A stretch of DNA of 64,000 nucleotides from Candidatus Methanomethylicia archaeon (GCA_038727515.1 JAVYVS010000001.1:64001-128000), one strand, 5' to 3'; positions 6,533-19,336 are shown, counted from the first letter of the stretch. Notes: a model not told the origin generated them from the sequence alone. Translations and numbers: made by a program.

Positions 6533-7846
6533 CTATTGAATGAGGTATAACTGTTCTTGTCTTCCATGTAGCCAATATGGTTTTCCATTGGTAAAGACTA
6601 TATCATCTTCCAATGCCATTCTAATCTCCATATCACCCCACTCTGGAATTTTATGGTATGTACATAGTTCTATGGAGAAACATGTATCTTCAATAACTTC
6701 ATAATCCCCTCTTCCAGGTATGCCTTCTTGATTATCCCATAAACCTATGATTGGCCCTGCCCCATGACCATGAAATCCAAGTGGATGTGTATATATCCTA
6801 CCCTTAATCCCCTCTCTACAAGCTTTCTCCAATGCTGATTTCAATATTTGATTTCCAGTTCTACCAATTTCAAATTCCTCCAACAATATATCTTGTAGTC
6901 TATTTGTTGTTTTTAGAGCGTTTTCAATGGATTTAGGAGCATCTGTTTCCCCTATTTTAAGTATGTATGCATTGTGTTGTGTATCTGTACATAGGTTTAA
7001 ATATCTTATCCCCACATCACAATGTAGCAAGTCTCCAGGCATAATCTTCTTTCTAATATTCCCACGTTGAACTCCAAAGTTTTGTGGTGGATTATCTGGT
7101 GCTTGAATATCTACTGTTGGTTGAAACCATGCTTCTAAACCTAAATCCAATATTGTTTGCCTCATCCACCAAACCACATCTTCAGTGGTTGTTACTCCAG
7201 GGTGAATAACATTGTTTGAAAATGCTTCTCTAATAATGGTATGCGCTATTCCCACTATACCTGGATATACATCTATTTCTGGTTTAATCCTCTTCTCAAG
7301 CCATTGAACAATAAGTCTCTCAGCACTTTTAACGCGATTCATGTAATCTCCTAAAGCTCTACTTATTAAGTTGTATTCAGTGTAGGTTAAACCATCTGCA
7401 TGTTGAAAGTTTTCAGAGAAGTTTAATCCTATGGTTTTTGGATCTCTTTCTCTAACGATTCTAGTTAAACATGTAAATTGATCTTCTTTTTCAGGGTCCC
7501 ATACAGCTTCATAGAATCCTTCAATTCCATAACGTGAGAGAACAAGTTTCTCTAAATTTCCATCTCTTCTAAGTGTAAATACTAGTATAGTCCTCCTCCT
7601 AGCTGAAAGCATTGTTGAAGGTAGTAGTGAAAACATTACTGGATCTTCATTATATTCCCTTCCATCCACAATCCACATATCAAATCCTTCTTTCAACATT
7701 AATTCTGGTAGGAGTTTATCTAGTCTCTCCTTCAACCATTCATCAACGATTTTCGCTCTCTCTTTTAAGGGTAGAATCTTATTTTTAATGGAATTTAATC
7801 CACAAAATCCCTCAACCAATACTTCCACCAATAAGATTATTTCCAA
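6533..7846 (-). CDS. M24 family metallopeptidase (Xaa-Pro aminopeptidase-like)
   Basis: GDLLHCDVG...TDTQ, THPLGFHGHGAG, FSIE, LEDD metal-ligand motifs; true start may be slightly downstream. Confidence 0.88.
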   Translation of the reverse strand: MEIILLVEVLVEGFCGLNSIKNKILPLKERAKIVDEWLKERLDKLLPELMLKEGFDMWIVDGREYNEDPVMFSLLPSTMLSARRRTILVFTLRRDGNLEKLVLSRYGIEGFYEAVWDPEKEDQFTCLTRIVRERDPKTIGLNFSENFQHADGLTYTEYNLISRALGDYMNRVKSAERLIVQWLEKRIKPEIDVYPGIVGIAHTIIREAFSNNVIHPGVTTTEDVVWWMRQTILDLGLEAWFQPTVDIQAPDNPPQNFGVQRGNIRKKIMPGDLLHCDVGIRYLNLCTDTQHNAYILKIGETDAPKSIENALKTTNRLQDILLEEFEIGRTGNQILKSALEKACREGIKGRIYTHPLGFHGHGAGPIIGLWDNQEGIPGRGDYEVIEDTCFSIELCTYHKIPEWGDMEIRMALEDDIVFTNGKPYWLHGRQEQLYLIQ

Positions 7847-7852
7847 AAACCT

Positions 7853-8461
7853 TTAATGCTTTTCCAATTCACTTTTAACTTCATTTATAAGTTTTATTGC
7901 TTTCTCTATCTCTCCCCTAAGTTTAATGTTATATAATGCTGCAGCTGGATGATATGATGCTATCACATATACATTCATCCCCAAAAATTTTGCCCTATAT
8001 ATTTTACCTTGAACTTCACTTATAGATGTAAACTTTATCCCAGCTTTTGAAAATATGTATGATGTTGAATGTCTACCTAAAGTTACAATTATCTCTGGTT
8101 TTATCAAGTTTAATTGTCTATCTAGGTATGTATGACATGCTTCTATCTCTCTTTCATTTGGATCTCTATTTTCAGGAGGTCTACATTTAACTATATTGGT
8201 TATATAGACTTCACTCCTCTTAATTCCAGCTTTACCTAGGATTTCATCCAATAGTTTTCCAGCTGCACCAACAAAAGGTAAACCTTTCACATCCTCCCAA
8301 TATCCGGGTGCTTCACCAATAAATACTATAGATGCATTAATATTTCCATCACCTAAAACTGGATTTCTACGATGCCTCCATAAATCGCACTTCCTACAAT
8401 TCTTTACTTCAAGTCTCAATTTCTCCATAGCTTCAAAATTCTGTGATTTTTCCAAAGACAT
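7853..8461 (-). CDS. udg: Uracil-DNA glycosylase, family 4 ([4Fe-4S])
   Basis: CxxC, GEAPG, PFVGAAG, TNIVKCRPPENR, YHPAAALY. Confidence 0.95.
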   Translation of the reverse strand: MSLEKSQNFEAMEKLRLEVKNCRKCDLWRHRRNPVLGDGNINASIVFIGEAPGYWEDVKGLPFVGAAGKLLDEILGKAGIKRSEVYITNIVKCRPPENRDPNEREIEACHTYLDRQLNLIKPEIIVTLGRHSTSYIFSKAGIKFTSISEVQGKIYRAKFLGMNVYVIASYHPAAALYNIKLRGEIEKAIKLINEVKSELEKH

Positions 8462-8537
8462 TTAACCAAATATACTTGGGTTTAACCCTAAAATTAATTT
8501 TCCCCTTAATTCTATAAATTAATCTTTAAATTTAACT

Positions 8538-9647
8538 TCACTCAATACTCTCAATATCTTCTTCTTGAACTAGTTTTTCATGTAGTATTGTGGTTATAGC
8601 TGTTATTGCTGATGCTAATGCATAGTCTGTTGATATAACTATTCCTGGTGCTATATCTAGTACGTAATTGGCAAATCTAAATAATCCAGTTGGAATTCCT
8701 TCTCTAGCTCCCACCATTAGGTTTATATTCCTCCCCCTTTTCACATTCTCCAAGATGAAATCAGCTACTTCACCACTTATCTTTGATATAGGTTCACCTT
8801 CAGGTTCAAATATTATTATTGGTTGATTTATCTTTGATCTAATGAATTGATACATATCTTGTATTTGAACTTGAGTTTTATGTACTTCTCTACCATAATT
8901 CCTCTTTTGAATCTTATATCTAGATTCTATACCTTCAAAAAGACCCTTTAAAAAGTGGTAGAATGGTTGTGCATCAACTATTGATATTGGAGCTATAATC
9001 AATCTCCCAACTTCATATGTTTGAACCTCCCTTCCAATCCTAGTACCCATAACATATGATGCATCTATAGGCCCTAGATAAGGTTCATGTGCAATTACAA
9101 ACTTCCTAAAAACCTTATACATTGGATATTTATACGGCTTCATCTTCCTATGAAATTCAGATCCTGAAACCATTGATAGATATGCATAACCATTAATTAT
9201 TTGTACCACTAAAACTTTATCTGGATTCTCCAAATCTACTTTAGCATTAGTTAACTTCTTTAATTCACTCCCAACAGCTATATTTACATCCATCGATTTA
9301 AAATCATGTCTACCTCTCCTAACAGTTGAAACTGCAAATTTATCTTCACATGATATTCTTTCAGAAAAACTCTTTGAACATTCAATTATCCCATCCAATT
9401 TAGCTTCACAAATTTTCTCCACAAGAAAAACTTTCTCAACTTCTGGAATCCTCTTTTTCACTTCTTCAAACAATTTATTCTTATCACTTGCATATGCAAC
9501 TAAAACCAATCCTGGAAATCCCTGTGGAGATGAAAGCACTTGAGCATTTACATCTAAATCCCTAACATAAGACTCCACAATCTTCTCCATCCCAAGCTTA
9601 CAAGTTATTATTAAATCAACCTTATCATAAGCAAACAGTTTCATCAA
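8538..9647 (-). CDS. THUMP-domain SPOUT-family RNA methyltransferase
   Basis: THUMP (FAVSTVRRGRHDFKS...VDLENPD) plus SPOUT knot (VGAREGIP...DIAPG). Confidence 0.82.
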   Translation of the reverse strand: MMKLFAYDKVDLIITCKLGMEKIVESYVRDLDVNAQVLSSPQGFPGLVLVAYASDKNKLFEEVKKRIPEVEKVFLVEKICEAKLDGIIECSKSFSERISCEDKFAVSTVRRGRHDFKSMDVNIAVGSELKKLTNAKVDLENPDKVLVVQIINGYAYLSMVSGSEFHRKMKPYKYPMYKVFRKFVIAHEPYLGPIDASYVMGTRIGREVQTYEVGRLIIAPISIVDAQPFYHFLKGLFEGIESRYKIQKRNYGREVHKTQVQIQDMYQFIRSKINQPIIIFEPEGEPISKISGEVADFILENVKRGRNINLMVGAREGIPTGLFRFANYVLDIAPGIVISTDYALASAITAITTILHEKLVQEEDIESIE

Positions 9648-9684
9648 CCCCCAATTATAATTTAATTAAACCATGAAATTATGT

Positions 9685-9831
9685 TTAATGCAATACTTTA
9701 ATAATATGGTAATGTGTTTCAACTCCACTTGAACTTGTAAATGCAGCTCCAACTTTACCTTCAAGTTTCTCATGTACTTCAATAGATCTATCAATTAAAT
9801 TCTTAAGTTTGCTGGGCATTTTACCATAGTA
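9685..9831 (-). pseudogene. Fragment of a WrbA/flavodoxin-family gene
   Basis: Manual translation YYGKMPSKLKNLIDRSIEVHEKLEGKVGAAFTSS; no N- or C-terminus. Confidence 0.7.
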
Positions 9832-10113
9832 TTTTATTATAAAGCTTCCACGTATACATCAAAATATTATTTGGTATTTAAGATGAAGCTTTATTGTATT
9901 AGTGGGTTTACTTCAATGATTTCATCTTCCCTTATGAATCTTCTATATCAAGCTTCAAATAATTTTGGTGTTATATTACATCACAATAGTTGGACATAGC
10001 AATTTACAGGGAGCTATTCAAGAAGCAGCATCAAAATTACGGATTTCAATGTTATTTTGGGATATACTTTGCTTTTCTACTTATACATAGACTTATAGTG
10101 GAGTTTATGAAAC

Positions 10114-11190
10114 CTATAACCTCTTAGCAGCTTCCTTTATTAGGGGATCCATAAATTTATTATCCTCATCTATTATAGAGTGTCTCCTCAAAGTTATTAG
10201 TATATCATGCAATACCCTATCACTTACACCTCTACCTTCAATATCCTCTAAAAACCTTTTAAGCTTACCCCACTCTACAACTTCCTGTGCCAAAGCTCTT
10301 AGAATTACAATATATCTACTCCTACTAACTCTAAATCTAAGGAAGTTTTCAAGCTCCAATCTAGCAAGTTCAATAGCATCATTCCAAATATCCCTATAAC
10401 TTCTTCCACCAAAACACTTTGAATATCCATAATATGTAAGCCACCCTATAATACCATTAAACATATTTACAACTTCTTCAATTTCACTTTTAGGAGGTTC
10501 AACACCATATTCTTCAAAACCCTTAATTAAGAAATCTATAGCCTCCTCCCTCCTCAGTCTCCTAGTTTTAACTTCAAAATATGCTCTTCCAAAGAGGGGT
10601 GCCTTTGGATCCTTTAAAAAGCCATAGAGTACACCCATTTCAGAGCCAGATATTATAAAGGAGAGATTTCTAAGATGATCATATGCATATGCCATGGCAT
10701 TCTGAAGGATTCTACCAACAATGCCAAAAGCATTTTGAATCTCATCAAAAACCACTACAATCTTTGAATTATGTTCATAAGCTGCATCATTAAGTATTGT
10801 GAAAAGCTCCGTTAAAAGAGGTCTATCCCTACCCCAACTAAACTCAACATTAAAACCTGATATACTAACCCCCCTCACAACCCTCAAAAACTTCAATATA
10901 GTTTCCTGAAAACTCTTCCATCTAGACCCCCAAGCCAACAACTCTGATACCCCACTAGATATAAAGCTATACAAATCCCTTCTAGAACCAATTGTACTCC
11001 TCAAATCAACATACATATAAGGAACATTACAATCTTCAAGAACTGACAGTATCAATGAAGTTTTACCAGTCCTCCTCAAACCAGAAACTAGAATTAAAGG
11101 TTGCCCAATAGCATTTCTAAGCCTATGAAATTCATCATCAAAATCATAAATATCCTTCTTCAAACGTTTAGGTCTAGGATCAAAAAGCAC
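10114..11190 (-). CDS. Archaeal AAA ATPase (ATPase_2-like)
   Basis: LFDPRPK N-terminus typical of the family, SGLRRTGKTS, VVFDEIQ, ISGSEMG, LFGR; start at GTG 11190 is estimated. Confidence 0.88.
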   Translation of the reverse strand: MLFDPRPKRLKKDIYDFDDEFHRLRNAIGQPLILVSGLRRTGKTSLILSVLEDCNVPYMYVDLRSTIGSRRDLYSFISSGVSELLAWGSRWKSFQETILKFLRVVRGVSISGFNVEFSWGRDRPLLTELFTILNDAAYEHNSKIVVVFDEIQNAFGIVGRILQNAMAYAYDHLRNLSFIISGSEMGVLYGFLKDPKAPLFGRAYFEVKTRRLRREEAIDFLIKGFEEYGVEPPKSEIEEVVNMFNGIIGWLTYYGYSKCFGGRSYRDIWNDAIELARLELENFLRFRVSRSRYIVILRALAQEVVEWGKLKRFLEDIEGRGVSDRVLHDILITLRRHSIIDEDNKFMDPLIKEAAKRL

Positions 11191-11224
11191 TTTCACACCG
11201 AAAGCAACTTTCATACTGAAAGTT
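11189..11224. promoter_or_regulatory. Tandem palindromic operator-like sites CTTTC-N5-GAAAG at the ATPase start
   Basis: ACTTTCACACCGAAAG (11189-11204) and AACTTTCATACTGAAAGTT (11206-11224), 18-bp period. Confidence 0.55.
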
Positions 11225-11374
11225 AAAAACCTTTCTATCCTATGAGAAGAACGCTTATATACTTTTTATCATAGCTGTGACGAATGATCTATTAAATTTT
11301 TAGAACCCCACCCCTATATCATGCTTAAGCATAATTAATGCTTTATTCGCTTCCTTCAATCCAAATATGTTTAT

Positions 11375-11699
11375 TTACTTCCTTATCAAATTTATAACTA
11401 GTCTCCACCTTTCTCCAAATTTTGTGTTACCTTCGTTAACCCTTATCAGTATATTTATCTCAAAATTGTAGTATCCCGCATCTTCACCATAATACACTGG
11501 CTTCTCATCCATCATCAATGTGGATACACTATACGACTTCACCTTCGATTCATTATGCAACTTCTCCATCCCTTAGACTCAAACCTTTAAACATCTTAAA
11601 AAAGAAGTTCTGTACTGCAAATCCACTATACCTTTAAAACTTAAACTTCTCATACATTCTTAAATTGATCTTCAGTAAAACAATAGATTCATCAAACAT
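11375..11699 (-). pseudogene. cas6: Decayed N-terminal part of a cas6-like gene
   Basis: MFDESIVLLKINLRMYEKFKF*RYSGFAVQNFFFKMFKGLSLRD then frameshift to EKLHNESKVKSYSVSTL, resembling the Cas6 N-terminal G...LH...K.YSVS.L pattern; no Gly-rich C-terminal loop. Confidence 0.55.
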
Positions 11700-11851
11700 A
11701 ACTTCAAAATTGTATGAAAACCACTTTAAATCTTTTATCAAAAAATTTATACTCAAAATTTAACCAAGATTTAGTTTTGGGTACACCTTCACTTAAAGTC
11801 TCACAGCAAGATACTACAATAATACAACAGTCCAGTGGAAGAAGGGCTTTT

Positions 11852-12604
11852 ATGGTAAAACCTGAAGAATATGATGGGAATATAATGGTGGATTTAATCC
11901 GATTGCTGGATGATTTATTTTATAAGGACATAGTGAACTGCAGAAGGTGTGAGTTCTCCCAGCGGGAACCAAAGCATTATAACTCCAAACCTGAGTGGAA
12001 TTTGCCTCCCCAGTTTCAATTTTGGGCTAAAAACAAGTTTCCATGCAAGAAGGATGTATATTACACAATGTATCAGCTCAACCCTACCCGCTGGGTGGAG
12101 CCTAACGTTGTCTTCGTAAGTCTGAGATCCAGCACTGGACATATACCAAGCATATAAGATATCATATTCGCGAACGCTTTGATTAAACACGGTTTAGCGA
12201 AGGAGAGGTTCAACATGGATGGTGACAGGTTCGTCTACTATGAAACCTACGTTTTGGTTACAGATTTAACCTGTTGTAGAGGCCCAGCGAAAGAGATGGT
12301 TGAGGCGAGGCATGTGGAGGCATGCATAGGTCACTTCATTAAGCAACTTGAAATACTCAAGGAGTATTATGGAAAAATCCCGAAGATCATAGCCATTGGC
12401 AAGAGCATAACCGAACCTAAATTGAAACTGGAAAGTGTAAAGAAGTACCTTCAGGAAGTGGGAACTAAAGTCATAGGTACAGTTCCACACTATGGTAGGC
12501 AGAAAAATCCAGAGGAGTACATCAAGAAATTCGACGAAGCCCTAAATAAGAACAGAATTACTTTTAAATCCGTGGATTTCGGCCATCTTCGCAACATAAC
12601 TTAA
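11852..12604 (+). pseudogene. Divergent uracil-DNA-glycosylase-superfamily gene interrupted by one in-frame TAA (12155-12157)
   Basis: ORFs 11714..12157 and 12179..12604 share a frame; CRRC, VTDLTCCRGP, EAC..HF..QL, PKIIAIGK, VPHY parallel family-4 UDG motifs. Confidence 0.65.
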
Positions 12605-13493
12605 TCATGTAAACACGGGAATGATGTTGAAAGTTGGACCAACTTTAAAGCTGGGAAATTTTGGAAAGCATTATACTCAAGGATTGTAGCATGTATGATT
12701 TAATAAATTTACAGTAAGCTATACTTTTACACTAATTAATGAATATTGCAATGACCAGAATGGACGTCGCAACAGCTCATATTGGTGTCGAAAAATCGCC
12801 GCCATATTTTTAAGAGTCGAAATGTTAAAACAAATCTAAGACGATCAAAATGCTTGAATTTGTTTACTGTAATGAATTTCTGGAGGAGGTGGGGGAAATG
12901 TATGATGCCTTTAAAAATTGACTTAAAAGTTTAGAGAGCAATATAAGTGAAAAGATTAAAGAGAGAAGAAGATATCCTGCTTATGTGGATAAAAGTTATT
13001 TGTAGTATGGAAGAATTTTATATACTGAAAAAGGTTAGATATGATACTACCAGAACAGAAGGAAATATGATAATAATTCAGCTAGCCCTTTACAAAATCT
13101 TACCGATCTCTCCAATCCCAATTCGTGTGACGATTCTTGGAGATTGGCAAAAGTGGTATGAAGAAAAAGCGATGATGAAGGAAAAAGCTTCATATCTAAA
13201 TGGAGCCTTCCGACGGAATTAGTGAATTCAAAAGGTCCAAGTTTTATTGGCATAATGAGTGATATCTCGTTTATGAAACGACAGGTATTTCAGAGTCAAT
13301 TGATTTACTTTATGATAAAAGACGAATAAAAATTAGAAAACTCTTCTCTCCATTAAATTTGATAATTATGATTTTTCCAAGATTTTACAAATAACTGAAA
13401 GTCTTTTTGCATGGTCTGAAGATAGTGAAGCTATAGTAAAACTTACTCTCAAAACTTGAACTCTAATCTAAATTTGATCTTAGATTATGCCAT

Positions 13494-13563
13494 AAAACTC
13501 CTTGAACATTCATTTATCCTATACAATTTAGCTTCACAAATTTTCTCAAATTCTGGAATCTTC
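13494..13563 (-). repeat. Degenerate partial copy of the THUMP-SPOUT gene (9366-9453)
   Basis: 54 bp with 4 mismatches, an 18-bp deletion between TTCTC direct repeats, then TTCTGGAATC. Confidence 0.85.
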
Positions 13564-13703
13564 ATTTTAACATTTATGGTGCATTTGTATCCATGTATAG
13601 CTTTAAATATGGTAATCAAATAAAAGTAAAGGATAAATTTTATTTAAATAAATTTATTTGTGGATACTTTCTTAAACAATTAAATATTTGATGGTAAAAT
13701 AAT

Positions 13704-15752
13704 ATGAGTACCCTTAGTTTTTGTCCTAAATGCGAAAGTTTAATGAAGTTTAGAAAGGTGGGAAATAAATTAGAAACTTATTGTACTAGATGTGGATATA
13801 CGAGTATTATTATAGAATTTGAGGAGAGAAAATCTAAAAAGATTGTTGAAATAGATTTAAATGAATTAATGGATGTAATCATTAGAGAGAGAAGTTTTGC
13901 AGTTAAAGATGCTACGAGTATAAGTTATCCTGCTATTATTGTTGATGTTTCACATGGAATAGCCACCATAAAAACAAAGTATGCTACTCATTTTCAATCT
14001 GGAGATCCCATAGGCTTCTATGAAAAAGGTGGCCCAAAATATTTTGGAACAGTAATCGATTCACATCAAGACTTTATAACAGTTTTAACACCAATTGAAT
14101 GGGATGAAATAGAAAAAGAATTATATATTGATATTTTCGATTATGAACCATTAATAAGTTATGATCTTCAATTAAACCTTCTCAAACAGATAAATGGAGA
14201 AGAATCTGAATATTTAAATGTAAAAGTATCAAATGAGAATGCTATTAATCTCGTTTTTAAAAATCTTAGTTTACCAGAATTGAAATATCACAAACTTATG
14301 GATGTAATGGATGTTAGTAAAAGGTTTAAACTTGATAATTCACAGATAAAAGCTGTTGAAGCTGCACTTGCCTTAAACGATAATGAAATACTTTTAATTG
14401 TAGGTCCACCGGGAACTGGTAAAACTAGAGTTATAGCTAAAATAGCTTTCGAATTAATGAAGAGAGGTGAAAAAGTACTAATAACTTCACATACCAATAG
14501 AGCTGTAGATAATGCTGTAGAAAATCTACCTTTAGAGAAAACACTTAGAGTTGGCAGACCAGAAAAAGTTTTAGAAAACATAAAGAAGTACCTACTCAGC
14601 TATAGGGCGAGAGAACGAATAGGTCAAATGATATTGGATTTAGATAATAAATTATATAAATTTTTCAATGAACTACGTAATTTAATTAAAGATTACGAGA
14701 AAATTAAAGATTACAAGAAAAGTAGAAATTATGAAAAGATTGTATTAAGGAATATCTTAAAGAAATATAAATCTCACATTATAGATACCATTAAAAATAG
14801 AAATAAAATGATTAGAGAAGAATGTGAAAAACTAATTGATGAAATTCCGATAATTGGATCTACATTAGTTAAATCACAATTACCACCATTGTGGAACATT
14901 GATTTTGATACTGTAATTATTGATGAAGCTAGTCAAGCATCAATAACATTAGCATTGTTAGCCATGGTTAAAGGTAGGAAGTGGATTTTAGTTGGAGATC
15001 ATAAACAATTACTGCCAATATTTCGAGATAAAAGAGTAAGTAGTATAGAATCAAGAATAAAGTTAAGTGCATTTTCAGGTTTAAAGGAAAAATATGAGCA
15101 TAGACATTTATGGCTGCAAATACATTATAGAAGTCACCCAGACATAATTGGATTCTCAACAAAATATATTTATGAAAACAAAATAAAATGTCATGAAACA
15201 TGTTTAAACCAAACATTAAAATTTGAAAAACCTCCAAAACTAGAATTCCTTACAGAAACAAAACCAGCAGTATTCATCCATGTTAATGGTATAGATGAAG
15301 TGGTGGGGAAATCGAGAAGAAATGAAAAGGAAGTTGAAGTTATATGTGAAATAATAAGAGAATTAATAAATTGTGGGATAAAACCATCAGAAATAGGGGT
15401 AATAAGCCCATTCATAGCACAAACAAAACAAATAATAGAAAAACTACCAAAAACAAAAGAGAAAATAGAAGTAAACACAGTAGATGCATTCCAAGGAAGA
15501 GAAAAAGAAGTAATAATATTCAGCATAACAGACACTACAAAACTAAAATTTCCCTCAGACCCCCATAGACTAAACGTAGCACTCACAAGACCCAGAAAGA
15601 AACTAATAGTCGTAGGAAATGGAAAAGCAATAACAGAAAAAGCAAAAAACACACTACTCCACAAATACCTAGAATACTGCTACACAAAAAACACAATATA
15701 CGACTGGAACAAAAAGATATGGCTACAAAAACAAGAAAAAACTCAAACTTAA
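13704..15752 (+). CDS. Superfamily 1 helicase (UPF1/DNA2/NAM7-like) with N-terminal Zn ribbon
   Basis: FCPKC...CTRC; GPPGTGKT, TSHTNRAVDN, IIDEASQ, VGDHKQL, HYRS, TVDAFQGRE, RLNVALTRP. Confidence 0.93.
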   Translation: MSTLSFCPKCESLMKFRKVGNKLETYCTRCGYTSIIIEFEERKSKKIVEIDLNELMDVIIRERSFAVKDATSISYPAIIVDVSHGIATIKTKYATHFQSGDPIGFYEKGGPKYFGTVIDSHQDFITVLTPIEWDEIEKELYIDIFDYEPLISYDLQLNLLKQINGEESEYLNVKVSNENAINLVFKNLSLPELKYHKLMDVMDVSKRFKLDNSQIKAVEAALALNDNEILLIVGPPGTGKTRVIAKIAFELMKRGEKVLITSHTNRAVDNAVENLPLEKTLRVGRPEKVLENIKKYLLSYRARERIGQMILDLDNKLYKFFNELRNLIKDYEKIKDYKKSRNYEKIVLRNILKKYKSHIIDTIKNRNKMIREECEKLIDEIPIIGSTLVKSQLPPLWNIDFDTVIIDEASQASITLALLAMVKGRKWILVGDHKQLLPIFRDKRVSSIESRIKLSAFSGLKEKYEHRHLWLQIHYRSHPDIIGFSTKYIYENKIKCHETCLNQTLKFEKPPKLEFLTETKPAVFIHVNGIDEVVGKSRRNEKEVEVICEIIRELINCGIKPSEIGVISPFIAQTKQIIEKLPKTKEKIEVNTVDAFQGREKEVIIFSITDTTKLKFPSDPHRLNVALTRPRKKLIVVGNGKAITEKAKNTLLHKYLEYCYTKNTIYDWNKKIWLQKQEKTQT

Positions 15753-15914
15753 TTACTTCCATAATCTTCTTAAATTCACATGAACAACAATAGCTAATAG
15801 TGTTTTCTCATTCTTTACCCTCATCCCATTTCACAAAACATTAAATAGATGTTCACAGTCTTATGATAGAAATATAAGTAATTCATCACCATATAGATTA
15901 TGGAGATAATTTTT

Positions 15915-16106
15915 ATGAATGTAAATATTAGAATTGAGGATCTTAAAGAATCAAATATTAATGATCTCATATATGTTTGCTCCTCTAAAAGGCTTGATGA
16001 TCCAATCCATCAGCAGGGTATGAGATTTAAGAAGCTTTGACTTCTTGAAATACTTAAAAAATATGGTTCCATTGCAAAAATTGCTTACCACAATTCTAAT
16101 ATTTAA
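15915..16106 (+). pseudogene. Truncated N-terminus of a probable GNAT acetyltransferase
   Basis: MNVNIRIEDLKESNINDLIYVCSSKRLDDPIHQQGMRFKKL*LLEILKKYGSIAKIAY with internal TGA, preceded by GGAG RBS. Confidence 0.55.
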
Positions 16107-16166
16107 CGAAGTAGATTTTAAGCTTAAATTGAAGAAGCTTCAAATCATTAATGAAAGAGGGTATAT

Positions 16167-16637
16167 ATGACGAATTACTGGGTTCTATCATCTTATAGTT
16201 TAGATAATATACGGAGAGCTCATGAAAGGTTGATATGGGGCTTTACAGATCCTACAATTAAGAAAGAAGAGAAGTATGCTAAAAATTGGCGGGACTTCAT
16301 TAAATTATACAATAAAATTTCGTTCGGTGACATAATGGCTTTTCAACTCTTTCAGGAAGGAAGATTTTATATTCACGGCTTAGGCGTGGTTCAAGAAAAA
16401 TTTTACGATGACGAGACACCGATATGGGATGATGAGGTCAAATATAGGCGTGTCTTATACCCTTGGAAAGTTAGATTTGGATTAATGCTATACTCAGAGT
16501 CACCTATTACAGAGTTAGCTATACCTACCCATGAATACGTTACAGGCTATGGTATTGGTAAGTTGCCGAGAGGAGACTTAGAAACAATTATTCGGAGTTT
16601 AGAAAAAACCACAGGTTTAAAAGTCAAGTTCATATAA
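16167..16637 (+). CDS. Stand-alone EVE/PUA-like domain protein
   Basis: NYWVL...N......IWGF...ISFGDIMAF...GLGVV....YDDETPIW...YPWKVRF pattern typical of EVE-like domains. Confidence 0.7.
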   Translation: MTNYWVLSSYSLDNIRRAHERLIWGFTDPTIKKEEKYAKNWRDFIKLYNKISFGDIMAFQLFQEGRFYIHGLGVVQEKFYDDETPIWDDEVKYRRVLYPWKVRFGLMLYSESPITELAIPTHEYVTGYGIGKLPRGDLETIIRSLEKTTGLKVKFI

Positions 16638-16784
16638 ATCAATTTAAGAAGTTAAGATCTTTGAAATCCTAAATAAAGAGATTTTGCGGATATAAGCCTA
16701 TAGAGCTCTGCTGGATGACATGGCTCATCCAGCCCGAGGGAAAAAAATGAGGATAGAGAAATATTCAAGCATACCATCAAAGAT

Positions 16785-17642
16785 TTAAGCGTAGAATTTC
16801 TTAGCACTCTCACAGATCTTCGCAATTGGACACTCTTCACAATCAGGGTCTATGTCGTAGCAATAGTCGCGTCCCACAACCCAAAAGATATCATCCAATT
16901 TTACTGGAAGGTCTGGAAAGGCTAGCTTAGAGAATGCGAGTATATCATGGATGTGGTTTGGTAGCTCGCCCCTCCACCCTTCTTCCCCTGGAAACATGCG
17001 GCCGAAAATCCTATTGAAAACTTTGATTACATTAACGTCTATAGGCATATCTGCAAGATTCCCCTCTTTAACATCAAATTCTGGTGACTTTGCCTTCACT
17101 TGGTCAAACCAGGGATGGCATTTGGAAAGACCTAAAGATCTATAAATGAAGTCTTTCGTTGTCATACTAGCCTTTTTAGGACCAATTCCCGCTATTCTCC
17201 TCAATGTGAAGTAGACTTCCAAAGCCGTGTACGGTCTATTCTCAAACATGGTTACTGGAGACTTCCCCTCTTTTTGAAAGAATCTTAGAGCATCTAGTAT
17301 ATCCTCAGAAATTTTATTAATATATCCATCCTGCCCCTCCTTATCCTTCATACGACTAGAACATTTATCTTCAAAAAACTTTCTTAACATCTCTTTATAA
17401 TCAACTTTTAAAAGTCTGGGTAGGTCAAACCCCCCTATCCTATCATTCAACCATGAAGGAAACTCAAAGGCATAACCGTGGAACCCTCGTTCATTGCATA
17501 TCGTGGCTATTAAAGGTGCAAATTCGTTTTGCTCTAAAAGAGGATCATCGGGCCACTCCAAATAAAATTTTTCCCAGATTTCAGCGAGCTTTTCAGCCTT
17601 CTCCTTAATTTCTGAAAAGCTAAAATCTTTTATACTCATCAA
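16785..17642 (-). CDS. HhH-GPD superfamily DNA glycosylase/lyase with [4Fe-4S] motif
   Basis: HhH LRRIAGIGPKKA, catalytic PIDVNV, C-x6-C-x2-C-x5-C (CYDIDPDCEECPIAKIC). Confidence 0.85.
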   Translation of the reverse strand: MMSIKDFSFSEIKEKAEKLAEIWEKFYLEWPDDPLLEQNEFAPLIATICNERGFHGYAFEFPSWLNDRIGGFDLPRLLKVDYKEMLRKFFEDKCSSRMKDKEGQDGYINKISEDILDALRFFQKEGKSPVTMFENRPYTALEVYFTLRRIAGIGPKKASMTTKDFIYRSLGLSKCHPWFDQVKAKSPEFDVKEGNLADMPIDVNVIKVFNRIFGRMFPGEEGWRGELPNHIHDILAFSKLAFPDLPVKLDDIFWVVGRDYCYDIDPDCEECPIAKICESAKKFYA

Positions 17643-17968: not shown

Positions 17969-19336
17969 TCAGGAGCCTTTTTTAATCCAATTTTCTACGT
18001 CATTTAGTTTGTTATTTATGTATCTGATTTTTATGTCTTCTCCATCTCTCTTCACTTCAACCATAGTGCTTTCAAAACCTGAATGTGCAAAGAAGTCTCT
18101 TACAATTTCCTTACTTCCTTTTGCTTCAATAACCTTGCTATACACAGTCCAATCGTTGGGTATTTTTTCTTTATTCGCCTTTATTTCATTTACATCACGT
18201 TTCAAAAATCTACAGTTTAAACTTAAGTTTAATTCTTTGTATAGTGGGATAAATTCTGATAATATGCCACATATGTTTGGTTCATCTTCTTTAACCTTGT
18301 CTTTAAGTTTATTTTTTATGAATGTGTATATCGCCATTGAATAGAAGATGTTAATTAATTCTTTGTCTTTAACAGTATATGTGTAAATCTTATTTTCATT
18401 TTTATTGATTTTTGGTTTAATTATTCCTTCACATTTTTCCGTGAAGAATTCTATTAAATCATCTTCTAAACTTTCAATTTTAAAGTCTAAATTTATCATT
18501 TTTTGATTATTGTTTTTACGGGTATAGAAAGCTAGTGGTGTATTATATTTTATTGAATTGAAAGCTAATGTAAAAATGTCTAGGAAATTTCTCAAGTTTT
18601 CCCTTAAATACTCAGTTTCTTTGCCGATTTTCATTCTCAAATTTTCATCAACTTCAATGTAGTATTCAGGTTTACAAATCTCATCTATTCTTCTACCTCT
18701 AATTGGAGATTCAAAGAAAGCTTTAACATCATATTCACATAAATGTATCCTGTATTTATCCTTTTTTAAACCTTTTATAATAGGCTCTGAAACAGCATAT
18801 TTAGCTTTAATTCCACGTTTTTGAAGCTTCCTCTTAACAATTATTGCTCTTAAAGCTTCAAGAAGTGTGGATACATACAAATTGTATCCAGTGGAGATAT
18901 CGGCGATAATCATTAATTCATCATCAATATTCCTTTCATGTTTCAACATTTCGAAAAACAATTGGAGTTGAATATTGTTTGGAGCACTTTCAAATTCAAA
19001 TTCTACATCTCCAATCCTATATCTACCAATGGAATTAACGATGATAACATCAAAATTTCCACATTTAGAATAACTTGAAATCTTGTCTTTAAAAATCTCC
19101 TTAATCTTATTTTCATTGAAATCATACAATAAACTTTTATCTTCAACCATGCTGCAAGGACAGATATAGAAGACTTTAACATCAAAATCCTTTTTCATGT
19201 AATATGAAGCTAGAGCGTCTGAAGATAGGTAAACATCGTTTTCCTCATGGCCATCAACAATATAAGAAACCTTTTCATATCGAGCAATATCCCCAAGAAC
19301 CTTATAAATATAAAGAGTTTTCTCAGGTTTAGACAC
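17969..19336 (-). CDS. csx1: Csx1 CARF-HEPN cOA-activated RNase
   Basis: N-terminal CARF (LGD...Y; DISTGYN), HEPN RDFFAHSGF, CRISPR context. Confidence 0.92.
   Translation of the reverse strand: MSKPEKTLYIYKVLGDIARYEKVSYIVDGHEENDVYLSSDALASYYMKKDFDVKVFYICPCSMVEDKSLLYDFNENKIKEIFKDKISSYSKCGNFDVIIVNSIGRYRIGDVEFEFESAPNNIQLQLFFEMLKHERNIDDELMIIADISTGYNLYVSTLLEALRAIIVKRKLQKRGIKAKYAVSEPIIKGLKKDKYRIHLCEYDVKAFFESPIRGRRIDEICKPEYYIEVDENLRMKIGKETEYLRENLRNFLDIFTLAFNSIKYNTPLAFYTRKNNNQKMINLDFKIESLEDDLIEFFTEKCEGIIKPKINKNENKIYTYTVKDKELINIFYSMAIYTFIKNKLKDKVKEDEPNICGILSEFIPLYKELNLSLNCRFLKRDVNEIKANKEKIPNDWTVYSKVIEAKGSKEIVRDFFAHSGFESTMVEVKRDGEDIKIRYINNKLNDVENWIKKGS

Follow-up and report, generated by a model that had tools for sequence, protein, structure and literature searches.

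The window analysed here is a stretch of 64,000 nucleotides from a Candidatus Methanomethylicia archaeon (GCA_038727515.1, JAVYVS010000001.1:64001-128000), which corresponds to G000:C1:64001-128000 in our numbering, where G000 is the host genome of 1.59 Mb in 12 contigs with 32.9% GC. Between window positions 11,852 and 17,642 lie four genes of interest: a frame related to family-4 uracil-DNA glycosylases (UDGs), denoted as UDG-like (11852-12604, + strand), an intact superfamily 1 (SF1) helicase with a zinc ribbon and an Upf1/IGHMBP2-like core (13704-15752, +), an EVE-like gene (16167-16637, +), and a divergent iron-sulphur (Fe-S) HhH-GPD glycosylase gene, denoted as HhH-like (16785-17642, -), whose product is a predicted glycosylase/apurinic-apyrimidinic lyase. 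A preliminary description of this DNA had named a UDG-superfamily gene, a zinc-ribbon UPF1-like helicase, an EVE-like gene and an HhH-GPD Fe-S gene at these coordinates, and all four calls were borne out by profile searches, motifs and AlphaFold2 (AF2) models compared by Foldseek. Across 7.8-20.5 kb, the gene order is canonical UDG, THUMP/SPOUT methyltransferase, ATPase_2, cas6 relic, UDG-like, a gap, helicase, a second relic, EVE-like, HhH-like, csx1 and CARF. These genes make up an island that varies between strains, with housekeeping genes (the UDG and the THUMP methyltransferase) on one side and type III CRISPR accessory genes on the other.

The HhH-like protein matched no Pfam family at E ≤ 0.01, and its score against the TIGR01084 mutY model was 13.9 bits, where the cut-off is 286. 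The protein nevertheless displays the motifs GIGPKKA, PID and C-x6-C-x2-C-x5-C, and the GxGxKKA hairpin (G152, G154 and K156), D202 within PID, and C261, C268, C271 and C277 are invariant in 28 homologues. A profile of the family matched EndoIII (9nzc) at E=4e-4, with K156 and D202 aligned to the EndoIII catalytic pair. In this alignment, GiGpKk is placed against GIGRKS of 9nzc in a low-scoring segment, and the spacing from the hairpin to the Asp is ~45 residues in the HhH-like family against ~20 in EndoIII. The AF2 model had a mean predicted local distance difference test (pLDDT) score of 93 and a predicted template-modelling (TM) score of 0.90, and Foldseek placed 1orn on top (E=9e-5, target-normalised TM 0.67) and MutY and Mig (1kea) next, at 13-14% identity; a structure-atlas search also gave EndoIII-type clusters. 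Considering the model together with the motifs, the protein is predicted to be a divergent Fe-S HhH-GPD protein of the EndoIII/MutY/Mig branch with a two-domain all-helical fold, and K156 marks it as a putative bifunctional glycosylase/lyase. Two canonical HhH-GPD genes with EndIII_4Fe-2S domains are present elsewhere in the host genome.

No relatives of the HhH-like gene were found in the 40 related genomes searched. The family extends to at least 45 sequence clusters and 175 matches in metagenomes, mostly archaeal and from hot-environment samples. Viral contigs in IMG/VR held no relatives of the UDG-like or EVE-like proteins and only two distant HhH-like matches, at 26-29% identity, and this near-absence leaves a viral origin unsupported. 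To describe the neighbourhoods, 79 metagenome loci with HhH-like relatives were clustered at 85% identity into 48 clusters, and the neighbouring genes were annotated. DNA methyltransferase families led the Pfam census of 146 non-redundant neighbours within 5 kb (UPF0020, 4; N6_Mtase, 3; Eco57I, 3; N6_N4_Mtase, 3; C5 methylase, 2), where ResIII, DEAD and Helicase_C domains and integrases were also frequent, and PADLOC added mad2, type I and II methyltransferases, prokaryotic Argonaute (pAgo) and HmaC. At the level of single loci, the HhH-like gene was accompanied by integrases and C5 methyltransferases (L002), by a BrxC-like ATPase (L050) or a 996-aa methyltransferase (L008, of the same cluster), by a 1280-aa helicase and a methyltransferase (L005), by DUF499 and an SNF2-nuclease (L069), by a type IIG-like methyltransferase (L012), by an Eco57I/MmeI-like (type IIG) enzyme (L085), by hsdM and hsdS of a type I restriction-modification (R-M) system (L103), by pAgo (L057) and by HmaC/DUF499 (L073). 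The R-M operon at L103:1121-5779 also encodes a 593-aa RNase HII-domain protein between hsdM and hsdS. The HhH-like family is accessory and horizontally mobile.

In the case of the EVE-like protein, a Pfam scan gave no match, the EVE model (PF01878) included, and the sole family match was to NF002008 at E=8.5e-4, far under its cut-off. The best of five AF2 models reached a pLDDT of 76, and the others were at ~50. With this model, Foldseek returned 2p5d as the top match (E=2e-6) and further matches to PH1033, YTH domains and THYN1, at TM 0.5-0.6; the EVE proteins matched are named as MJECL36 and PH1033. The model thus points to a PUA-like beta-barrel with an EVE/YTH-like fold. Six aromatic residues, W5, W24, W41, W87, W100 and Y128, are invariant across 18 sequences of the family. 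The protein search gave nine relatives. Among the EVE-like homologues placed in context, one lies inside a type I R-M operon, immediately upstream of hsdR (L043), others follow the SNF2-nuclease of a DUF499 system (L064 and L069), and one is immediately upstream of the Upf1-like helicase (G009); the other contexts include a transposase neighbour (L017), an ATPase_2 neighbour (L020) and unremarkable settings. When the DUF499 and SNF2 proteins of L069 were searched against the window by tblastn, nothing was found. In genome G004, a 228-aa protein encoded divergently to an EVE-like gene (L038:988-1674, G004:C15) has an RLWGF motif as in the EVE family and a C-terminus resembling the AbrB/SpoVT type, which suggests a possible fusion of an EVE-like reader with a DNA-binding domain; the same genome has two more weak EVE-like matches within longer open reading frames (ORFs).

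The metagenome contig L006, from the same species, is 97.4% identical in DNA to the window over 7836-16094, after which the match breaks. Both L006 and the genome G001 (93-97% identical to the window up to 16094) are without the EVE gene, and past this point they carry the remainder of a 269-aa GNAT-like gene and then a 134-aa gene. A 47-codon ORF in the window (15897-16040, +) is the N-terminus of the 269-aa gene that is intact in L006, truncated here by the EVE insertion. The inserted cassette of ~0.6 kb (16095-16683, +) contains the EVE-like gene, and its DNA recurs in unrelated contexts, 16120-16638 being 85% identical to L017 and 16115-16637 being 78% identical to L013. From 16684 on, the DNA of the HhH-like gene is only 83% identical to the L006 allele, which has a frame break close to its start, and 92% identical to the L002 copy, which lies between two integrase genes with C5 methyltransferases. 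The homology break at 16094, the occurrence of the EVE cassette alone elsewhere and the L002-like HhH allele indicate that the right half of the island was recently assembled by insertion and allele replacement. The EVE gene is therefore a strain-specific single-gene insertion; judging from its modelled fold, it encodes a predicted modified-base reader that recently arrived as a 0.6-kb cassette. The L002 element (L002:7426-20855), whose HhH-like gene is also scored at 89% identity, is flanked by integrase genes, is situated just after the rpS10 gene and carries two C5 cytosine methyltransferases. It also has a canonical 237-aa HhH-GPD gene that matches the PADLOC model of type II nicking endonucleases (E=7e-29) and is probably a Mig/Vsr-like repair partner.

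The EVE-like and HhH-like genes of the window are convergent with a gap of 147 bp. A similar arrangement was observed in L063-L069, where EVE-like genes (43-44% identity) are convergent with HhH-like genes (46-50% identity) at a distance of 0.3 kb, and a 2-kb block (L069:6259-8279) is ~90% identical in L065 and L067 despite different flanks. The glycosylase is kept alone in L071 and L012. In the EVE tree, the glycosylase-adjacent genes fall into two clades, each with 100/100 support and each with members from other contexts, so the adjacency arose at least twice. L073 adds a remote EVE gene, recognised by hhalign (E=2.6e-4 over 125 columns) and by hmmsearch (E=0.0014), which immediately precedes HmaC and is ~1.2 kb away from the HhH-like gene. 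A second small ORF of that locus (9556-10014) was rejected as an EVE gene at an hhalign probability of 0.4%. Complex prediction for the HhH-like and EVE-like proteins scored 0.00 in both runs, which is evidence neither for nor against an interaction. The EVE-HhH association is recurrent but not obligatory.

The helicase matched AAA_11 (E=1e-41) and AAA_12 (E=3e-47), and its Walker A and B motifs are GPPGTGKT and IIDEASQ. Residues 6-76 match a TFS-like zinc ribbon. Against TIGR00376 (the IGHMBP2 family) it scored 299.6 bits, under the cut-off of 348.9. Within the phylum, 13 of 401 genomes encode it, spread over 11 of 161 genera, and single in-frame stops interrupt three of the 13 copies (TAA in L026 and L027, TAG in L142). 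The helicase is thus an accessory gene of rare and patchy distribution, and it may act in defence or on RNA. In G014 (L031:1423-10706, G014:C6), a homologue with 52% identity directly follows type III CRISPR effector (RAMP) genes, and a 61%-identical homologue of the window's ATPase_2 protein lies 8 kb further on, so that part of the window arrangement recurs in another family. The PADLOC MkoA model matched the helicase core at 255 bits, a match covering only the C-terminal helicase part of MkoA, and neither the helicase nor any of the nine neighbouring ORFs that were scanned contained a PLD domain. Identification as Mokosh was accordingly rejected, there being neither a PLD nuclease partner nor a fusion. 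A helicase-EVE partnership was likewise set aside as a system, as the EVE gene adjoins the helicase in only two of the 13 helicase genomes, the window and G009 (Ca. Culexmicrobium cathedralense).

The UDG-like gene is one frame with a single in-frame TAA (12155-12157, +), which makes it a pseudogene in this genome. The TAA codon reads Ser in L006, and intact versions are found in L006 and in P0056 (233 aa). Very few relatives are on record: a word index of 5.8 billion proteins yielded two, and 1.84 billion representatives searched exhaustively with HMMER yielded nine. The profile built from these nine matched the family-4 UDG 4zbx (E=7e-6), and hhalign aligned it with the window's own family-4 UDG at 94% probability over 167 columns. 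The Fe-S cysteines C13, C16, C125 and C141 are invariant in the family. Motif A of family-4 UDGs, GE(A/G)PG (GEAPG), is replaced by (A/S)LRPST in all relatives, and an insertion of ~35 aa follows the CxxC. One relative, P0060, is 3 kb from a PglX-like methyltransferase with BrxL, and ParE is nearby; the contig of another, P0058, was too short to tell anything of its neighbours. The UDG-like gene, dead in this genome, belongs to a very rare offshoot of the family-4 UDGs in which the active-site loop has been rewritten.

On the left, the island is preceded by the canonical family-4 UDG (7853-8461, -), which family searches confirmed as the repair UDG already described at 7853, and by the THUMP/SPOUT methyltransferase gene, which lies between this UDG and the ATPase_2 gene. 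The latter (10114-11214, -) belongs to the left part of the variable stretch and encodes an archaeal AAA+ protein with a C-terminal MCM-type winged helix (Pfam ATPase_2, E=4e-13; MCM_C, E=1e-9). It is followed by the cas6 relic (11443-11738, -), comprising a 5' part and upstream region. An intact gene for a 288-aa Cas6 (G000:C1:60845-61711, equivalent to L139:346-1212; Pfam CRISPR_Cas6, E=4e-16) lies 2.3 kb ahead of the window, and DNA overlapping its 5' part (G000:C1:61452-61753) aligns with the relic at 76.6% identity over 303 nt. On the right, csx1 (17969-19336, -; Pfam Csx1_CARF and Csx1_HEPN, TIGR01897) encodes a CARF-HEPN protein and is the first of the type III accessory genes, with a ring-nuclease-like CARF gene beyond it. 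The flanks given earlier as a cas6 remnant and csx1 are therefore correct. A foreign composition had also been proposed and was found: the UDG-like and HhH-like genes have 41.3% and 40.0% GC, at the 98th and 97th genome percentiles, and the observed/expected CpG ratio is 0.64-0.95 in the recently acquired genes. CpG is strongly depleted in the host genome, where this ratio averages 0.38 and the housekeeping genes flanking the island are at 0.11-0.21. The caveat of the preliminary description that the genes are not one operon stands, as the four genes occupy both strands and are separated by 0.1-1.1 kb of non-coding or decayed DNA. For 12605-13703, ~1.1 kb without a credible gene that had been called debris, a DNA search of 40 related genomes gave no intact ancestral gene and only the G001 helicase upstream region and a 54-bp repeat. 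This direct repeat is 93% identical between its copies at 9366-9419, inside the THUMP gene, and 13494-13547, 160 bp upstream of the helicase, and in G001 the helicase upstream region is joined straight to a THUMP-like fragment. The repeat and the G001 junction suggest that the 4.1-kb stretch between the repeats, with the ATPase_2 gene, the cas6 relic and the UDG-like gene, is an insertion.

Taken all together, we lean towards reading the stretch as a mosaic defence island of separately acquired small genes that includes a defence-type glycosylase. Since homologues of the four genes never occur together as a set, they are not one module. The proposed check of co-occurrence came out in two ways: in the fetched loci, searched by tblastn with all window proteins, the four families were never together, but the EVE-HhH pair recurs. 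An alternative in the preliminary description, a set of mini-systems, fits this outcome, to which we add the repeated placement of EVE-like genes beside the HhH-like glycosylase. The defence-island setting was also upheld by homologues of the HhH-like, UDG-like and EVE-like genes that adjoin R-M, BREX-like, DUF499, pAgo, toxin-antitoxin and integrase genes. Counting the window with its CRISPR genes, at least nine of the 18 independent HhH-like contexts with usable flanks include a gene recognised as belonging to defence or to a mobile element. Several observations weigh against this interpretation. The nine of 18 is a raw tally with no matched control family alongside; two of the 18 contexts have only helicase- or HerA-like ATPase genes and seven have no recognisable defence gene, and the contexts in L056 (a tRNA synthetase) and L010 (HD, PHP and type II secretion system genes) are plainly housekeeping. 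No PADLOC model matches the UDG-like, EVE-like or HhH-like protein. The HhH-like copy of the window has Asn after the catalytic Asp where most homologues have His. With respect to the pair, the nearest relatives are without the partner, the HhH-like genes of L002 and L006 having no EVE gene and the EVE genes of L013-L021 having no HhH-like gene, and the convergent orientation means that the two genes are not co-transcribed.

The folds, motifs, distribution, mobility and neighbourhoods are as described above; how such a glycosylase might act, we infer by analogy with EndoIII chemistry and with the bacterial Dag and Brig enzymes. It would flip out a base modification that is absent from the host and carried by some viruses; D202 would cut the glycosidic bond, K156 would form the Schiff base that nicks the strand, and the resulting abasic sites and nicks would halt viral replication. 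The EVE protein may bind the same or a related modified base via its conserved aromatic residues and so guide or license neighbouring effectors, either the glycosylase or a helicase/translocase. A narrower proposal is that the HhH glycosylase/lyase and the stand-alone EVE reader constitute a split, two-gene modification-dependent base-excision restriction system of archaea, in which recognition of a modified base specific to the virus would fall to the EVE protein, and excision of that base and nicking of the DNA to the glycosylase. We regard this proposal as speculative and rather doubtful.

Among the other explanations, it is conceivable, though we consider it unlikely, that the glycosylases are not antiviral but serve in accessory repair, travelling along with methyltransferases and mobile elements and, in a Mig/Vsr-like manner, mending deamination or alkylation damage linked to methylation. 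Deamination is fast in thermophiles, which the hosts are, many HhH-like homologues are near DNA methyltransferases, and the fold is closest to EndoIII, MutY and Mig. However, these methyltransferases are of unrelated types (C5, N4/N6, type IIG, type I and BREX-like) at varying distances, which argues that the HhH-like enzyme has no cognate partner among them. Moreover, L002 already has its canonical HhH-GPD gene beside a C5 methyltransferase on the same strand, and no methyltransferase adjoins the gene in the pAgo, DUF499 and CRISPR contexts. That the genes are decaying hitch-hikers without a present function in the host is improbable. Decay is apparent in the broken UDG-like gene, the stops in three of the 13 helicase homologues, the cas6 and GNAT-like relics and the frame break in the HhH-like gene of L006, whereas the helicase, EVE-like and HhH-like genes of the window are full length with all family-invariant residues, and conservation of the families over 25-60% identity points to purifying selection. 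Somewhat less probable still is that the helicase, the HhH-like gene or both are ancillary genes of the type III CRISPR system: the HhH-like gene is 327 bp from csx1 on the same strand and the G014 helicase directly follows type III RAMP genes, yet CARF, SAVED and other signal-sensing domains are missing from all four proteins, none of the other independent HhH-like contexts that were annotated showed CRISPR genes, and most helicase homologues are not beside cas genes. The integrated base-excision restriction module of all four genes put forward by the preliminary description, which gathers them within 6 kb beside csx1, is very improbable, considering that the set was in no other locus among those compared, that the UDG-like gene is broken by a TAA, that a strain sharing 97% identity as far as 16094 has no EVE gene, and that the genes lie on both strands with non-coding or decayed gaps.

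If the HhH-like enzymes excise modified bases, archaea would join the organisms with base-excision immunity, viruses of archaea with modified DNA would be expected, and the enzymes would provide thermostable tools for modified-base mapping. The two-gene system, if true, would give archaea their first described defence glycosylase and would be without precedent as a partnership of EVE and glycosylase. To our knowledge, the recognition of antiviral DNA glycosylases in bacteria dates only from 2024-2025, and no archaeal example is known. Defence glycosylases as a kind and EVE readers in archaeal restriction systems are already known; in the literature searched, we found no description of the HhH-like family, its Fe-S EndoIII-type architecture, its archaeal setting or its recurrent EVE adjacency. 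The analysis delimits a family of EndoIII-type Fe-S glycosylases, so far undescribed and mostly archaeal, which is invisible to Pfam models. It also illustrates how four genes that look like a tidy module can stem from separate insertions.

Compared with known proteins, the HhH-like protein shares with Nth, MutY and Mig.MthI the HhH hairpin, the catalytic Asp, the Nth-type Lys, the C-x6-C-x2-C-x5-C loop and the predicted fold (target-normalised TM ~0.65), and differs from them in its low identity of 13-14%, scores below the Pfam and NCBIfam thresholds, longer hairpin-Asp spacing, extended N-terminal region and patchy accessory distribution. The helicase core resembles that of Mokosh (MkoA helicase with MkoB PLD nuclease, or fused MkoC) at the level of the PADLOC MkoA match, and is distinguished from it by the zinc-ribbon N-terminus and by the lack of a PLD nuclease in the protein or the scanned neighbours. 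Stand-alone archaeal EVE proteins are known to attach to COG1743-DUF499-SNF2-nuclease systems and type I R-M operons, in a study that makes no mention of glycosylases (Bell, Wolf and Koonin 2020, PMC7641849). Homologues of the window's EVE-like gene occur in the same two settings (L064 and L069; L043), and the predicted EVE/YTH-like fold agrees, while the subfamily is missed by the Pfam EVE model and its neighbours in the window are an SF1 Upf1-like helicase and an HhH glycosylase. The window also departs from the COG1743-DUF499-SNF2-nuclease-EVE system in that the tblastn search did not recover the DUF499 ATPase and SNF2-nuclease.

Our best reading of the HhH-like glycosylase, drawn by analogy, is that it may be an archaeal counterpart of the bacterial defence glycosylases Brig and Dag. 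Brig1 and Brig2 are UDG-fold enzymes (Nature 2024, PMC11078745). The UDG-like gene resembles them in belonging to the UDG superfamily with an altered active-site loop and in having a homologue in a BREX and toxin-antitoxin neighbourhood, and, compared by description only, it differs in its predicted origin from Fe-S family-4 UDGs and in being a pseudogene here. Dag1 and Dag2 of Vibrio integrons are of the HhH superfamily, and Dag1 appears bifunctional; to set beside the nine of 18 contexts, the figures reported within 20 kb are 45% for Dag glycosylases and 3.1% for housekeeping ones (Getz et al. 2025, bioRxiv 10.1101/2025.10.29.685425). Unlike Dag, and again in a comparison by description only, the HhH-like family is almost wholly archaeal and from hot-environment metagenomes, has an EndoIII-type 4Fe-4S loop and ~70 extra residues, and sometimes has a stand-alone EVE gene alongside. 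As with Dag, however, it has an HhH fold missed by sequence models, is encoded by a single small gene of atypical composition near defence or mobile genes, and coexists with canonical repair paralogues elsewhere in the genome.

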